DNA of 35,281 nucleotides, from NCBI GenBank assembly GCA_051382305.1, contig JBBCAV010000042.1, forward strand, positions 1 to 35,281, given 5' to 3'. Both the position numbers and the translations under genes were made by a program. The stretch is from Bdellovibrionota bacterium FG-2. GTDB taxonomy: Bacteria; Bdellovibrionota; UBA1018. Shown piece by piece: positions 13,640-20,560 of the stretch (its first letter is position 1; each line of letters starts with the position of its first letter). The notes beneath the pieces are model-generated. The model saw only the letters and a program-made list of their open reading frames with translations. It searched no databases and was not told where the DNA came from.

Positions 13640-13734
13640 CGCACTTTGATTTTGAAGGGCTTTTCCCGCAACGTCAAGTTCTCTCAGAAAAGTTCTTGGC
13701 AAAAACTCCCCCGACGTTTTATTCCTACTCCATC

Positions 13735-15894
13735 GTGACGTTGAATCTTAGTCGATTAAATGAAAATCAAAAAAGGGCCGTTCTCCATGGAGATGGACCG
13801 CTGCTTGTCCTTGCGGGCGCTGGGAGCGGCAAGACGAGTACGATGAGCTATCGCATCGCTCACTTAGTCGCACAGCGAGGGGTGTCAGCCTCGTCGATCT
13901 TGGGGCTTTCGTTTACACGGAAGGCCGCTGAGGAGCTCAGGGAGCGCGTCAAGGGGCTTATCACTAAGGTCGCAGGGGTTCGGGCAGCGCATGGGCTTAC
14001 GGTCACGACTTTTCACAGCCTTTGCGCAAGAATTCTCCGGGCTCATGCTGAAAAGGTGGGCTATAGCAGAAACTTCACCATCATGGATCGCAGTGATCAG
14101 GTCGATGTGTTGAGGCAAATTCTAAGAAACATTAACGTCGATGATCGTAAATTTGATCCGGACGTTTTACTTTTTGAATTTGGCCAAGCTAAGAATCGAT
14201 TCCTGGGGCCTGCACAGGCCGAGTCCTTCTTTTTTGATTCCGGAAAACTGGCTAATGACTATGCCATCGTGGCGCACTCTTGTTTTGGTCGCTACCAAGA
14301 ACAACTCAAGGCCCTCTCGGCGATGGACTTTGATGATCTGCTATTTTCTGCGGTCACGCTCTTGGAGAATTCGCCCGAGGTACGAGCGGATTATAATCAG
14401 AAATTCCAGTATATCTTGGTTGACGAGTATCAAGATACCAATCCCGCTCAATCGCGGCTACTGAAACTCTTGACAGAAAGTAAGCAAAACATTTGTGTGG
14501 TCGGTGATGACGATCAATCGATTTATGCATGGCGAGGCGCAGATCCCACTCACATCTTAAACTTTGGTGAGCACTATCCTGGCGCGCGCGTCCTGACTTT
14601 GGATCAGAACTATCGCAGCACGACGACGATTTTAAATGCCGCCAATGAAGTGATTGGCAAGAATCGAAACCGGCATCCCAAATCCCTTTGGTCCGATCGT
14701 GGCGAGGGCGAGCCTATCGAGATGATTATGGTGGATGGCGATCGCGCCGAAGGCGAAGTGGTCGCTGAGGAGATTCTGAAACGCGCGCGTGAAGTGAATG
14801 AGGGGGTGATCAGGCAAAAACGGCCCTGGAAGGATTTTGCTATCCTCTATCGTAGCAATCCCCAATCTCGAATTTTTGAAGAGACGCTTCGTATGCGAGG
14901 AATTCCTTACAAGATAGTGGGCTCCATGTCTTTCTTGAATCGGAAAGAAATCAAAGACGTGCTCTCTTACTGGAAGCTCATTTTGAATCCAAAAGATGAC
15001 TCTTCTGCCAGACGGATTCTCAATTGGCCCTCGCGCGGAGTGGGTAAGACAAGTCTCGAGGTGCTAAACGCGCAAGCCGTTGAAAAAGGGATTTCTTTTT
15101 TCGAAACTTTGGGCCAGGCCCGCGATTTAACCACCAAGGCCGCCACAGGCGTCGCAAGTTTCAAGACTCTCATTGATAAGATGCGAACGGAACTAGAAAC
15201 CTGCGAGATCTCTCGCCAGGGCTTAGCGCTTTGGGCAAAGCGTTCGCTGGAACTCATTGGCGTAAAGCAAGGCTTTGAGCAGGACTCTGATGACGCTAAA
15301 GAAGTTGCGCGTAAAATGGATAGCGTCGATGAACTTGCTAATGCTGTGGGACAAATGAATCTGGCGGACATTCTCTCTTCGGAAACCGAAGCGGGCGGTG
15401 TCGCAACGAACGGATTGGATGTATTGCGGGAGTTTATTATCCGGATGACTCTTGATTCGATCGATGAGGCGGAGCGGGATGAAGAGAAGCAGGAACTAAA
15501 GGATCAAGTAACGCTGCTTACGCTCCATGGGGCGAAGGGGCTCGAATACCCGATTGTATTCTTAGTAGGGATGGAGGAGGGCTTGCTGCCCCATCGTCGT
15601 GTGATTGAAGAGTGCTCGGATCTAAGTGAGGAGCGCAGGCTCTGTTATGTCGGCATCACGCGAGCTCGGGATCATCTGATTTTAACTCGTGCAAAGAGTC
15701 GCATTCGATACGGCAAAGAAGTGCCCCGAAATCCGAGTCGGTTCTTGGAAGAAATTCCTGCAAATCTTTTAATCACTCGAAACGAATCTTCAACTCCAGA
15801 TTTGTCTTCAAAAGAGGCCTGTGAAAAACACGAGGCCAAAGTGAAGGATTACTTGGGTGCGATCCGCGCGCAGCTCATGGCCAATAAGAAGTAG
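13735..15894 (+). CDS. UvrD/Rep-family SF1A helicase (Rep-like, no C-terminal Tudor domain)
   Basis: LAGAGSGKT, FTRKAA, DEYQD, VGDDDQSIYAWRGA, QNYRS, TLHGAKGLEY, EERRLCYVGITRA. Start uncertain (GTG 13735 or TTG 13741). Confidence 0.93.
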   Translation: MTLNLSRLNENQKRAVLHGDGPLLVLAGAGSGKTSTMSYRIAHLVAQRGVSASSILGLSFTRKAAEELRERVKGLITKVAGVRAAHGLTVTTFHSLCARILRAHAEKVGYSRNFTIMDRSDQVDVLRQILRNINVDDRKFDPDVLLFEFGQAKNRFLGPAQAESFFFDSGKLANDYAIVAHSCFGRYQEQLKALSAMDFDDLLFSAVTLLENSPEVRADYNQKFQYILVDEYQDTNPAQSRLLKLLTESKQNICVVGDDDQSIYAWRGADPTHILNFGEHYPGARVLTLDQNYRSTTTILNAANEVIGKNRNRHPKSLWSDRGEGEPIEMIMVDGDRAEGEVVAEEILKRAREVNEGVIRQKRPWKDFAILYRSNPQSRIFEETLRMRGIPYKIVGSMSFLNRKEIKDVLSYWKLILNPKDDSSARRILNWPSRGVGKTSLEVLNAQAVEKGISFFETLGQARDLTTKAATGVASFKTLIDKMRTELETCEISRQGLALWAKRSLELIGVKQGFEQDSDDAKEVARKMDSVDELANAVGQMNLADILSSETEAGGVATNGLDVLREFIIRMTLDSIDEAERDEEKQELKDQVTLLTLHGAKGLEYPIVFLVGMEEGLLPHRRVIEECSDLSEERRLCYVGITRARDHLILTRAKSRIRYGKEVPRNPSRFLEEIPANLLITRNESSTPDLSSKEACEKHEAKVKDYLGAIRAQLMANKK

Positions 15895-15897
15895 AAA

Positions 15898-16374
15898 CTA
15901 GAGGTCCTGCAGGTATTGAATGTACTGCGAGGTTTCCGGCGGATTGGCTTTTGCCTTCTTGATGATTTCAATGGCATCGGCTTGAAGGAGTTTTCCCTCA
16001 GCCATTTTTTGACAGGCAATGGGTTCAAGGGGGTCTGTATATTGATAAATGCTTTCGTGCTGAGGCCAGAGGTTGTCGGCTTCATTACTGCCGCCCATAC
16101 AAAGAGGGATATAATGATCGATCTTGAAATGCTCCCGGCCGGTCTTCATGATCGTAAAGCCGAGGTCATGATCGTAGGTGTCGATGACTTGCCTTTTGAG
16201 GCCCGATTTGACATCGCGGCTACAGTAAGCGATTTGTTCGGGGTAACGAATCTTGCTCGCTCTCTGGCACAGGGAACCCGGAGTGAGCTGGGCGTCGGGG
16301 GAAGTTGGAAATGCATCAGCTGCGAAGAGAGGGATGCTTATGAACAACGAGAGAACCGCACATAAATTCCACAT
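15898..16374 (-). CDS. Secreted HNH-type (beta-beta-alpha-Me) nuclease
   Basis: Signal peptide (...SIPLFA|AD), IDHYIPLCMGGSN...NLWPQH motif, and four Cys in the mature chain. SD GGAG is 7 nt upstream of the ATG. Confidence 0.8.
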   Translation of the reverse strand: MWNLCAVLSLFISIPLFAADAFPTSPDAQLTPGSLCQRASKIRYPEQIAYCSRDVKSGLKRQVIDTYDHDLGFTIMKTGREHFKIDHYIPLCMGGSNEADNLWPQHESIYQYTDPLEPIACQKMAEGKLLQADAIEIIKKAKANPPETSQYIQYLQDL

Positions 16375-16381
16375 ATAGAGT

Positions 16382-16447
16382 CTCCAAATAGTCAGGCAAG
16401 GGTGCCTGGTAGAAACGCCAACCCGTCATGTTGGCTTATACTTAGAA
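16382..16447 (-). ncRNA. Purine riboswitch aptamer (guanine-type, C74), short-L3 variant
   Basis: The minus strand reads UUCUAAGUA-UAA-GCCAAC-AUGACGG-GUUGGC-GUUUCUAC-CAGGCA-CCCU-UGCCUG-AC-UAUUUGGAG, i.e. P1, J1/2, P2, L2, J2/3, P3, L3, J3/1, P1'. The junction sequences match the purine riboswitch core exactly. Confidence 0.9.
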
Positions 16448-16578
16448 GCTGTCGGGTAAATAAGTCTCTTTGGGGCAGGGTTTTGTCAAGGTTTCAGTGT
16501 CAAAGGCCTTTACAGTTGCTGTCTTGTTATCAATCAGGGCGGGGGGTGTCTGTTTCGTAGGCAGAGGGAGTTTTGCCG

Positions 16579-16697: not shown

Positions 16698-16928
16698 ATG
16701 AAAAAGAGAATCATGTTGTTGATTGCGTTTGGCGTGTCGTTTGCGCCACCGGTTTTGGCTTTTGAGCCGAGTCGAGCTCCCATTGAGTCGGCTCGTCTTG
16801 GCGAAAACTCGGTCTTGGAGACGACGGCAAGTGCCATCAACTGTAAATTTGCGGATCTAGAAAAATCAGTTGATCAAGATAAATCCGAGGCAAGGGTGAA
16901 ATCGATCTCTGCAAATAGCGCCGAATAA
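16698..16928 (+). CDS. Small secreted hypothetical protein (76 aa)
   Basis: SD AGGAG, MKKR followed by a hydrophobic signal peptide ending VLA; sigma54 promoter upstream. Confidence 0.75.
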   Translation: MKKRIMLLIAFGVSFAPPVLAFEPSRAPIESARLGENSVLETTASAINCKFADLEKSVDQDKSEARVKSISANSAE

Positions 16929-17735: not shown

Positions 17736-18152
17736 TTATCCGGTGCGAGCATCTCTTGAGGCGGTTCCGCGGGCGATCGATTCGCCTGCATCAAGAAATG
17801 CGCGCTCGATGGTCTTTAGTACGTCGGCGGAACTGAAGGGCTTCGTGAGATAATCGCGCGCGCCAACGTTAATCGCATCCATGATGAGATTTTCTTGTCC
17901 CATCGCAGAAATAATCACGACGCGTGCTTTCTTATCCATTTTTACAATGCGTCGGGTGGCATCAATTCCGCTCATATTGGGCATCACAATATCCATGGTG
18001 ACAATATCGGGTCGAAGTTTCATGTAGAGCTTAATCGCTTCAGCTCCATCTGCGGCTTCCCCGACGACCTGATAGTGCGCGGCCGTGAGAATTTCTGAAA
18101 GCGTTTTTCGAACAAACGCGACGTCATCGACAATGAGTACGGTCTTGGCCAT
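17736..18152 (-). CDS. cheY: Single-domain response regulator, CheY-like
   Basis: LIVDD, TMDIVMP.M.G, ISAMGQ and KPF motifs. Confidence 0.85.
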   Translation of the reverse strand: MAKTVLIVDDVAFVRKTLSEILTAAHYQVVGEAADGAEAIKLYMKLRPDIVTMDIVMPNMSGIDATRRIVKMDKKARVVIISAMGQENLIMDAINVGARDYLTKPFSSADVLKTIERAFLDAGESIARGTASRDARTG

Positions 18153-18203: not shown

Positions 18204-19469
18204 TTAGCTTTCAATTTTTTCGACGAGCACGCTCTCCACATGGCGTTCGGAGGCCTTCTGAATTGTGAATTTATATGCACCAGAAGGGGTGGTAAAAAAG
18301 AGTTCGTCGCGAGATTCGGGAATTCGGCCAAATTGCTGTAGCAAGAAGCCACTGAGGGTTTCGTATTCGCCCTGCGGGAGGTCTAGCTTGAGGATTTCGT
18401 TGATTTTCTGAACCTCCATGCGAGCTTGAATCATCCAGCTGGTGTCGGAAAGTTCTTTATACAACGCCAATTCATTGTCGTACTCGTCCTGAATTTCACC
18501 GACAATCTCCTCAATGACATCTTCAAACGTCAAAATTCCGACGGCGCCCCCGTGTTCGTCAACGACGACGACCATTTCAATGTCTTCAAGACGCATGTCG
18601 TTGAGTAACTCATCTAAGGCTTGAGTCTCTGCGACATAGTGCGGGGAATTCATGTAGTTTCGAATGGGCTGTTCCAGATCACTCGTGGTAAACAAATCCG
18701 ATGCATCAATCACTCCGATGACATTGTCGATTCGCTCCGAGTAAACCGGCATGCGGGAGTGTCGGTGGCGCTCAAAACATTCGAGCGCTTCTCGAATCGT
18801 CGAACCTTCTTCGATCGCTTCGACCCGAACCAGTGGAATCAGCGCGTGCTTGGCCTCGCTATCTCTAAAATCCAAAATGCGTCGGATCATTCGTTTGGCG
18901 CTGGTTTTGATTTCTGTTTCGCGTTTGGTGTAGGACAAAAGCGACCGCAGCTCTTCGCGTGTGGTTCGAGGTTTTCCGGCCAGAAGCTCCTCCATCGGAC
19001 CAATCAGTTTGGAGAGTCGACTCATATAGGAGGCGAGCACTCGCGTGATGGGAAAAAAGGCCTGGTAAACTCCTTGCACTGGAAGCGCGACATAGGGAGC
19101 CAGTTTGAGGGAATAGCGCTGAAAAACTGTTTTTGGAATGAGCTCCCCAAAAATGACGACCAAAGGGGAAACCACCAAGACCGTGTAGAGATCCGCATGT
19201 TTCGGGTGGGCAGCAAGAAAAAAGAAAGTGATGAGTGTGGAGTTTGTGATGACGCAAAGACTTGTCATGAGAAGCGTCGCCGAGAGGACTCGCTCGGGCT
19301 TTCCAGAAAGTTCAAAAGCCAAGCGATATCCGCGCGCGCCGGTTTTCGACAGCTTCTTGAGAGCAAGTTTGTCTGCCGACAAGAGGGCAATCTCGGATCC
19401 CGAAAATAGTCCCTCAATTGTCAAAAGAATGGGGACGATAAATAGGAGAGTCCAAAAGGAAAGGTTCAT
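18204..19469 (-). CDS. HlyC/CorC (CNNM-CBS-CorC) family transporter
   Basis: FSGSEIAL, FGELIPKT, HSRMPVY, VVDEHGG..GILTFEDVIEEIVGEIQDEYD, YETLSGF. Confidence 0.93.
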   Translation of the reverse strand: MNLSFWTLLFIVPILLTIEGLFSGSEIALLSADKLALKKLSKTGARGYRLAFELSGKPERVLSATLLMTSLCVITNSTLITFFFLAAHPKHADLYTVLVVSPLVVIFGELIPKTVFQRYSLKLAPYVALPVQGVYQAFFPITRVLASYMSRLSKLIGPMEELLAGKPRTTREELRSLLSYTKRETEIKTSAKRMIRRILDFRDSEAKHALIPLVRVEAIEEGSTIREALECFERHRHSRMPVYSERIDNVIGVIDASDLFTTSDLEQPIRNYMNSPHYVAETQALDELLNDMRLEDIEMVVVVDEHGGAVGILTFEDVIEEIVGEIQDEYDNELALYKELSDTSWMIQARMEVQKINEILKLDLPQGEYETLSGFLLQQFGRIPESRDELFFTTPSGAYKFTIQKASERHVESVLVEKIES

Positions 19470-20560
19470 TCTTTGGGCCTCGCGGGCGGCTCTTGCTCAA
19501 ATTCCTCCGGTTCTGGAAGGACTTCTTCGAAGAGCGCGTCGAGCACGTCGCTCATCGTGACAATCCCGAGTGTTTGGTTAGTAATTTGTACGACTGCGAG
19601 GTGCGTCTTGTTCTTTTTCATCTTTCGAAAAAGCGTGTTCATGTGCAGGGTGGGACCAATGATAAAGGGTTTGTGCATTAAGGAGGTGATAGGCGCCCCA
19701 AGCAGCTCTGGCTTGAGCCGAGCCCTTAGGAGGTCTTTGAAGTAAAGAACCCCGACAACCTGTTTGCTTGACCCCTCCGTTACTGGAAGGCGTGAGTATT
19801 TGAGATTTTTCATCCGATTGAGCGCGTCTTTCACAGTCGTTGCAGAGGAAAGACACTGAACGAGAGAAATGGGCGTCATGATGTCTTCGATTGTTCGATT
19901 ATCAAATTCAAAAATATTACGAATGAGCTCAAGTTCGTTTTGCTGAATGACGCCCTCTTTGAGGCCCTCTTCTGCGATCAATAAAAAATCGCTCTCTCGA
20001 AGAAGGTGTTCAGTCTCGGGCTCCAAATTGGCCCGAAGTTTTTCAGCCGGCGGCCCTTTTTGTCGCAACTTGCGGGCAAGAATAGCGACGAGACGAATGA
20101 GGCCTCGCCGTGGGATGAAACTGATGTCGTACAGCGTGGAGAGAGGGCTTGCGGTGAGTGTGGCAATGAGCTGGTTCGCTCTGGCTGCGATGACCTTGGG
20201 CGTGAGCTCACAAGCAAAAAGCACGATCGGCGTTGTAATAATAATGCCCAAGAGCGTATGCAATGCCCACGGAGGTAAAAACGGGAGAAGTTCGGATTTC
20301 TCGTGCGTACCTCTTGAAACGGCTGAAGCAATGATCGAGGATAGCGAGATATTGACCATCTCGTTGAGAACCAGCAGCGTCACTAAGAGCCCACCCGGGT
20401 CACCAATCAGTCGCTTGATCTTCCGAAAAGCGTTGCGCGAGTGATCCTTAAGCGATCTGAGCTGAAATCGCGATAAACTAAAGATCGCGACTTCAGAGGC
20501 AGACAAAAAAGCGGAGCTTGCAATCAAGGCTAGACACAGGAGAAGTTCTAGCGGTGTCAC
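19466..20560 (-). CDS. CNNM (DUF21)-CBS domain protein lacking the CorC C-terminal domain
   Basis: SASEVAIFSL, ELTPKVIA, YSRLPV, GIVTMSDVLD; ATGA overlap with the next gene. Confidence 0.9.
   Translation of the reverse strand: MTPLELLLCLALIASSAFLSASEVAIFSLSRFQLRSLKDHSRNAFRKIKRLIGDPGGLLVTLLVLNEMVNISLSSIIASAVSRGTHEKSELLPFLPPWALHTLLGIIITTPIVLFACELTPKVIAARANQLIATLTASPLSTLYDISFIPRRGLIRLVAILARKLRQKGPPAEKLRANLEPETEHLLRESDFLLIAEEGLKEGVIQQNELELIRNIFEFDNRTIEDIMTPISLVQCLSSATTVKDALNRMKNLKYSRLPVTEGSSKQVVGVLYFKDLLRARLKPELLGAPITSLMHKPFIIGPTLHMNTLFRKMKKNKTHLAVVQITNQTLGIVTMSDVLDALFEEVLPEPEEFEQEPPARPKE

Follow-up and report, generated by a model that had tools for sequence, protein, structure and literature searches.

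The window, that is, the whole stretch of 35,281 nucleotides analysed here (contig JBBCAV010000042.1 of Bdellovibrionota bacterium FG-2), carries on its minus strand a gene for a small nuclease-like protein, which is preceded by a predicted riboswitch aptamer of the purine class. The parts of the aptamer and its immediate surroundings are as follows.

16382 to 16447, minus strand: purine (predicted guanine-type) riboswitch aptamer, from P1 to P1 (RF00167, 46.4 bits; R1, 67.5 bits)
16439 to 16447, minus strand: P1 5' strand, UUCUAAGUA, partner of 16382-16390 (covariation in 7 of 9 P1 pairs)
16436 to 16438, minus strand: J1/2, UAA, with U22 at 16438 (columns invariant or near-invariant in alignment A1)
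16417 to 16435, minus strand: P2, GCCAAC/GUUGGC, with L2, AUGACGG, at 16423-16429 (all 6 P2 pairs covary)
16409 to 16416, minus strand: J2/3, GUUUCUAC, with U47 at 16415 and U51 at 16411 (7 of 8 columns invariant in A1; the third, U48, at least 90%)
16393 to 16408, minus strand: P3, CAGGCA/UGCCUG, with L3, CCCU, at 16399-16402 (all 6 P3 pairs covary)
16391 to 16392, minus strand: J3/1, AC, with C74, the specificity base, at 16391 (C invariant in A1)
16382 to 16390, minus strand: P1 3' strand, UAUUUGGAG, including the Shine-Dalgarno (SD) motif GGAG at 16382-16385 (sequence reading; the layout recurs in relatives)
15898 to 16374, minus strand: nuclease-like gene, 158 amino acids (open reading frame, ATG at 16372-16374, HNH motif DH..PL..GG.N...NLWP)
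16465 to 16556, minus strand: leader or upstream region, candidate promoter region (kept in the sister species, alignment A4)

Read on the minus strand, P1 comprises nine base pairs (three are G-U), and every junction nucleotide and each of the 21 helix pairs is intact. A consensus promoter scan of the minus strand near the aptamer returned no sigma-70-like site. The neighbours of the nuclease gene are ordinary. A UvrD-type helicase gene (13696-15894, plus strand) converges on it, the two stop codons lying 3 nt apart, and farther upstream are genes for a response-regulator receiver protein (17736-18152, minus strand) and for two tandem CNNM/CBS (CorC-type) membrane proteins (18204-20560, minus strand). 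Upstream of the riboswitch is a gap of 490 nt, which holds, on the opposite strand, a 76-amino-acid open reading frame with a signal-peptide-like N-terminus (16698-16928, plus strand), for which a Pfam search gave no match. Among sequencing runs, X1 alone carries the whole stretch, with identical letters, and is possibly the source of the assembly itself; a look for RNA runs that contain the locus found none.

The covariance model RF00167 matched at 16369-16463 (minus strand) with 46.4 bits against a gathering score of 37 (E = 7.6e-5); no other Rfam family passed its gathering score anywhere in the 35 kb of the window, and the genome as a whole (4.34 Mb, 85% complete) has no second match to RF00167. 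Our own model, R1, the training set of which included the window sequence, gave 67.5 bits at 16380-16448. Free-energy folding of the strand yielded no signal distinguishing it from shuffled sequences (z = -0.82) and was dropped as support, so the case stands on the covariance model and on the comparison with relatives. The pocket bases U22, U47, U51 and C74 are all present, and J2/3 and J3/1 are 8 nt (the canonical length) and 2 nt long; the contacts to guanine are made by U22, U51 and C74, according to the available part of PMC9295807. At the level of sequence, we take a real purine-class aptamer with a guanine-type pocket to be confirmed, belonging to guanine-I, with unusual loops and a presumptive ligand.

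Related classes were considered and rejected on the following grounds: (i) an adenine riboswitch is excluded by C, not U, at position 74; (ii) xanthine-II and guanine-II variants carry insertions in J2/3 and J3/1, and the former has U51G (PMC9295807, in the part available), whereas the window aptamer lacks these insertions and keeps U51; (iii) 2'-dG-I is marked by C in place of U22 and of U51 and by an altered J2/3 (PMC8872408, in the part available), whereas here both positions are U and J2/3 is the canonical GUUUCUAC; and (iv) 2'-dG-II combines C51 with a two-nucleotide insertion in J3/1 (same source), whereas here U51 is present and J3/1 is AC with no such insertion. At E <= 10, the 2'-dG-I model RF01510 left the locus unmatched, and the 2'-dG-II model RF03165 matched nowhere in the genome, the locus included. 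The original prediction had read the same three-way junction, base for base, with U22, U47, U51 and C74 forming a guanine-type pocket, and the silence of the two 2'-dG models, which it had named as a check, agrees with such a core. Its expectation that standard models may score the aptamer poorly was not borne out by a score above the gathering threshold, though this score is only the 11th of 15 in the family scan and the 32nd of 33 for the phylum sample.

Of 75 genomes belonging to the same GTDB family, 14 gave a match to RF00167, as did 20 of 116 from the order and 24 of 151 in a sample drawn evenly from the phylum. Fifty aptamers with their loci (L001 to L050; three further matches from the phylum sample, which came without a locus, were left out) were aligned with MAFFT, the structure being written from the window sequence. 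Within this alignment, 90.7% of the cells in paired columns were paired, compared with 73.2% after column shuffling, the observed value being reached in none of 500 shuffles, and a control in which the 3' partners were slid by 1 to 3 columns left 35 to 42% of the cells paired. Changes on both sides occurred in 19 of 23 pairs (P2, 6/6; P3, 6/6; P1, 7/9), which answers a check for covariation in homologues that had been proposed together with the prediction. The two L2-L3 pairs (GG with CC) are invariant in 47 distinct sequences, which speaks to sequence compatibility only; since they never vary, covariation is uninformative either way for the kissing contact. Also invariant among the 50 are the UAUA of P1/J1-2, the CUA around C74 and seven of the eight J2/3 columns, the eighth being conserved in at least 90%. 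The window aptamer differs from its relatives in P2 and P3 by compensatory changes, and in a comparison with 12 relatives its identity was 68 to 82%, while the 70 nt upstream reached 54 to 60%, which is the chance level (59% in shuffles), and the encoded proteins reached 45 to 56%. With the aptamer well above chance and the upstream flank at chance, it follows that selection held the aptamer on the lineage of the window.

The periphery of the aptamer is where it departs from its relatives. Its L3 loop, CCCU, is with 4 nt the shortest both among the 50 phylum aptamers, where the modal length is 7 nt, and against 64 further aptamers taken from upstream of homologous genes (a set that shares some species with the 50), where the lengths were 5 (2 aptamers), 6 (9), 7 (45), 8 (2), 9 (3) and 10 nt (3). 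The next shortest among the other 49 have 5 nt, namely CCUCA (L011) and CCUAA (L012, 5 nt by the MAFFT alignment and 7 nt by a simple parse). Five rows in which the simple parse failed, through a mismatch at the base of P3, were taken from the alignment. The 4-nt L3 is so far a single case, with none among the 113 other aptamers. The two terminal A columns of L3, each conserved in at least 90% of the alignment, are left empty by the window aptamer, which also has U and G at the L2 columns filled by A and U in at least 90% of the relatives, whereas the bases of the kissing pairs are kept, L2 ending in GG and L3 starting with CC. In the xpt structures, the two G-C pairs are surrounded by base quadruples, to which the terminal A's of L3 and the A and U of L2 contribute. 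On this view, the secondary part of the L2-L3 contact would be gone from both sides, the two G-C pairs remaining, and a contact so reduced would probably lower ligand affinity, i.e., raise the set point of the switch. At the opposite extreme, L010, L014 and L015, all from the family of the window, carry inserts of 18 to 32 nt within L3, apparently an extra hairpin, with the leading CC and the trailing A's retained.

A metagenome scan for the pattern of a 6-bp P3 with a 4-nt L3, which matched at least 120 stretches, gave no second example among the 80 loci listed, of which one is aptamer-like. This locus (L166, 2115-2201, plus strand; R1, 30.7 bits) carries a large insert in P2, and its P3 of 4 bp ends in a loop of 8 nt, which makes it another peripheral variant. 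Run X2 on window positions 16382-16440 returned short contigs from a wood-decay metagenome with core identity below 90%, which are aptamers of other organisms; one of these contigs has three extra bases at the position of L3 and thus represents a relative with a loop of standard length.

The known counterpart of such loops is the 2'-dG-I class, for which L3 has 4 nt compared with 7 in purine riboswitches, while the two tertiary G-C pairs are preserved in both 2'-dG classes (PMC8872408, in the part available); crystal structures of 2'-dG-I contain the 4-nt L3 with both G-C pairs kept (PMC8872408 and PMC12001964, in the parts available). In the Mesoplasma florum dGsw sequence as printed in the available part of PMC12001964 we identify AUAAUGG as L2 and CCUA as L3. 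These loops are thus equal in length to those of the window and identical to them at 5 of 7 positions in L2 and 2 of 4 in L3, with a 4-nt L3 starting with CC, an L2 of the form AU.A.GG and two G-C loop-loop pairs in common. The window element differs from M. florum 2'-dG-I in its pocket, which is of the predicted guanine type and not C-substituted, and in phylum, in gene and in platform, that of M. florum being transcriptional. The solved 2'-dG-I structure indicates that the 4-nt format is able to form the contact. Conversely, guanine riboswitches that were given 2'-dG-I-like loops bound guanine more than 50-fold less well (PMC8872408, in the part available), which suggests that the window aptamer may bind poorly. 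The 2'-dG-I class was reported from a single organism, according to the accessible portion of PMC5473149.

Much of the original prediction stood: its class, its pocket and its loops, including the retained L2 GG/L3 CC pairs (as far as sequence can tell), the atypical L2, the unusually short L3 and the likeness to the M. florum variants, as well as a Bdellovibrionota-like organism, with which the titles of homologues and the clusters of the protein atlas agree. Besides the poor scoring, two parts of it fell: a P2 of 6 bp, regarded as unusual, occurs in 43 of the 50 phylum aptamers (simple parse), and the supposed rarity outside the Firmicutes does not fit the frequency of matches in the family, the order and the phylum. 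The placement of the SD sequence within P1, the nuclease context across the phylum and the loss of the aptamer in the sister species had no part in it.

The P1 3' strand ends with the SD motif GGAG (16385-16382), and 7 nt separate it from the ATG (16374), which leaves no room for a terminator; a terminator scan of this strand after the aptamer found none. Counted from U75, the start codon comes after 12 to 20 nt in 49 of the 50 relatives and after 53 nt in the exception, L046, a lone transporter gene. A few of the values err by as much as 4 nt, the parser having stopped at an earlier CUA. With the SD inside P1, we infer that a P1 stabilized by ligand likely blocks translation. The element would then do without a separate expression platform, the SD being built into the P1 3' strand: a purine base filling the three-way junction would lock P1 and bury the ribosome-binding site, turning off synthesis of the nuclease, while under scarcity of purines the weak, A-U/G-U-rich P1 would open and the mRNA would be translated. 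Such a circuit would amount to negative feedback, in which the end products of nucleic acid digestion repress the nuclease. We consider it likely that the window aptamer is a working OFF switch on translation that responds to guanine or hypoxanthine, probably with reduced affinity.

The regulated gene encodes a protein of 158 residues with a signal-like N-terminus. Invariant in 29 aligned homologues are D86 H87 ... G94 G95. N97 ... N101 L102 W103 P104. The window protein matches Pfam HNH_5 below the cut-off (E = 0.022); 28 of the 29 homologues match it at E <= 0.1, the best at 6.6e-5, and the three HNH-like members for which bit scores were obtained all fall below its curated cut-off. Profile searches against the PDB gave nothing significant for the HNH-like group (best E = 0.36, to Cas8f-HNH) or for the PD-(D/E)xK-like group described below, NCBIfam gave no match for three of the nucleases, and in the protein atlas the HNH-like family consists only of clusters named 'hypothetical protein', mostly from Bdellovibrionota. 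On this evidence the product of the window gene is predicted to be a secreted HNH-like nuclease.

An all-against-all BLASTP comparison of the 50 downstream proteins gave groups of 31, 6, 6, 3, 2, 1 and 1, which were assigned as follows.

HNH-like: 31 members (motif and sub-threshold Pfam matches)
PD-(D/E)xK-like: 6 members (invariant E..D..EVK motif; Pfam matches only sub-threshold)
Endonuclease_1: 6 members (E = 1.8e-32 for the member tested)
EndoU_bacteria: 3 members (E = 6.9e-16 for the member tested)
Endonuclease/exonuclease/phosphatase: 3 members (all above the cut-off; the BLASTP groups of 2 and 1)
EamA transporter: 1 member (L046, the sole non-nuclease gene)
Loci with non-HNH nucleases: L002, L006 to L010, L014, L015, L020, L023, L024, L026, L029, L030, L034, L037, L040 and L044

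A predicted nuclease thus lies downstream of 49 of the 50 aptamers, and these nucleases belong to five unrelated families. By a crude test, an uncharged hydrophobic run within the first 35 residues is found in 49 of the 50 products, the EamA transporter included; the nuclease of L009 alone fails, its stretch being interrupted. Switches with the SD in P1 were also seen before the EndoU, PD-(D/E)xK-like, endonuclease I and endonuclease/exonuclease/phosphatase genes, the products of which have signal-like N-termini. Several genomes, e.g., G225, G233, G202, G179, G221, G039 and G100, each have two switches, the nucleases behind them being of different families. The HNH-like alignment, used in a scan across genomes, recovered 246 relatives, the best 80 of which come almost all from genomes labelled Bdellovibrionales, Pseudobdellovibrionaceae, Bacteriovoracaceae, Oligoflexia or Bdellovibrionota, a few being labelled otherwise, and 64 of these best 80 have an R1 aptamer just upstream on the same strand. 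At the 16 remaining loci and the sister locus, a search with filters off gave two non-credible matches only (E = 5.2 and 7).

A wider reading of these results, which we offer tentatively and with slightly more doubt than conviction, is that a purine-feedback regulon with the ribosome-binding site in P1 extends across the Bdellovibrionota and holds down secreted nucleases of five or more unrelated families (HNH-like, PD-(D/E)xK-like, endonuclease I, EndoU and EEP), tuning the digestion of prey nucleic acids to the purine pool of the predator. The window copy would then unite a guanine core with minimal loops of the 2'-dG-I type, a format that would have arisen independently outside the Mollicutes and may raise the purine level needed for a response.

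Several observations bear on whether the window aptamer still works. G013, the one further genome in the genus (98% complete), encodes an orthologue of the nuclease with 76% identity, which is sister to the window protein in the tree (support 100/98), and RF00167 and R1 searches of this genome gave no match. The leaders of the two species align well at about 16465-16556 and again from the P3 3' strand on (GCCAGACUAUAGGGAG...), and about 40 nt have been lost in G013, comprising the end of the P2 5' strand, L2, the P2 3' strand, J2/3, the P3 5' strand and L3. When its locus (L131, 1960-2140, minus strand) is set against window positions 16400-16451, nothing is left but the P3 3' strand, J3/1 and the P1 3' strand with its SD. 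As G013 keeps the nuclease and has lost the aptamer, riboswitch control of this gene is dispensable in the genus, which is the main reason to treat a decaying aptamer as a serious rival. The loss of 3 nt from L3 and the changes in L2 would in that case have crippled the tertiary contact, leaving an aptamer unresponsive at physiological purine levels and a gene that is in effect constitutive. The missing A's of L3, the missing A and U of L2, a RF00167 score near the bottom of the phylum range and the more than 50-fold loss of binding in loop-swapped guanine riboswitches (PMC8872408, in the part available) are all in keeping with decay. Against it are the intact junction nucleotides and 21 helix pairs, the compensatory differences in P2 and P3, an aptamer conserved far better than its flanking leader, and the fact that the same loop format works in 2'-dG-I (same source), and we regard decay as unlikely.

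A working aptamer could still differ from our reading in what it binds or in what binding does. Other variants of guanine riboswitches have changed their ligand, the loops resemble those of 2'-dG-I, and 2'-dG-II, similar in gene context, stands upstream of genes for endonuclease I, ComEC and phospholipase D (PMC8872408, in the part available), so another purine from nucleic acid breakdown, e.g., 2'-deoxyguanosine, guanosine, xanthine or 8-oxoguanine, might be the ligand. However, U51 and U22 are kept, where C at position 51/58 is critical for selectivity toward nucleosides (same source), J2/3 and J3/1 lack the insertions of xanthine-II, guanine-II and 2'-dG-II, neither 2'-dG model responds at the locus, and a loop swap in 2'-dG-II left the choice of ligand unchanged (PMC6847200, in the part available), all of which makes a different ligand very improbable. 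As to the effect of binding, folding of a 116-nt transcript of the window sequence alone (16345-16460, minus strand) predicts an alternative structure of -31.0 kcal/mol, compared with -22.3 kcal/mol for the aptamer fold, the latter value being without tertiary or ligand energy. In this alternative, the partner of J2/3 (GUUUCUA) is the SD region (UGGAGAC) and that of the P1 5' strand is the ATG region, so that both SD and ATG would be buried without ligand as well. As modelled, the alternative minimum-energy fold counts against an open ligand-free state, and it would suit a ligand that turns the gene on, or one that acts on transcription or mRNA stability and not by blocking translation initiation. 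Yet this fold is not conserved, the SD pairing with J2/3 at a probability above 0.5 in 2 of 50 aptamers and with the P1 5' strand in 19 of 50. In addition, 49 of 50 relatives have the SD within the helix that ligand would stabilize, and the lack of room for a terminator, together with the lack of any terminator-like site downstream of the aptamer on its strand, speaks against control of transcription, so that we give these other modes of action scarcely any credence.

The OFF switch on translation that we favor shares with guanine-I (RF00167), for which we take xpt-pbuX of Bacillus subtilis to be the type example, the three-way junction, identical junction sequences, C74 and the L2 GG/L3 CC bases. 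The differences from guanine-I lie in the 4-nt rather than 7-nt L3, in an L2 altered at its conserved A and U, in the SD within P1, which implies translational action with no terminator, and in a gene for a predicted secreted nuclease in place of purine salvage or transport. With 2'-dG-II it has in common that a purine-class aptamer stands ahead of genes acting on DNA. In SAM-II and preQ1-II riboswitches the aptamer contains the ribosome-binding site, and the add adenine riboswitch of Vibrio vulnificus is a translational ON switch with a separate platform; the control of translation initiation by hiding the SD, known from all three, is what we propose for the window, where, unlike in any of them, the SD would simply be the P1 3' strand of a purine aptamer.

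Our searches of the literature on purine or guanine riboswitches and nucleases in Bdellovibrio-like bacteria found no link between the two, and likewise no description of a regulon of guanine riboswitches with the SD in P1 on nuclease genes was found in the searchable literature; an earlier mention is possible. Papers on the secreted nucleases of Bdellovibrio discuss the timing of nuclease expression and compensation, the word riboswitch being absent from the portions available, and they describe, in the same portions, a brief early peak of expression for bd1244, which encodes an Endonuclease_1 protein. If the proposed reading is true, free purine bases, acting at the ribosome-binding site, would shut down the production of secreted nucleases in predatory bacteria, and the pattern of five nuclease families across a predatory phylum merits more follow-up than the loop itself. 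The window aptamer would also be a natural test of how much L2-L3 contact a guanine pocket needs, a point so far addressed by engineered loop swaps and by the 2'-dG-I class. A design in which P1 is the SD is about the smallest possible purine switch and could serve as a compact translational part. A minor similarity concerns positions 16379-16392 (minus strand; J3/1, the P1 3' strand and the next bases), which share an identical run of about 13 bases with the region of L3 and the P3 3' strand in the M. florum dGsw sequence, as given in the available part of PMC12001964; the two runs occupy different structural positions, and the match is probably a coincidence of A/U-rich, SD-like strands.
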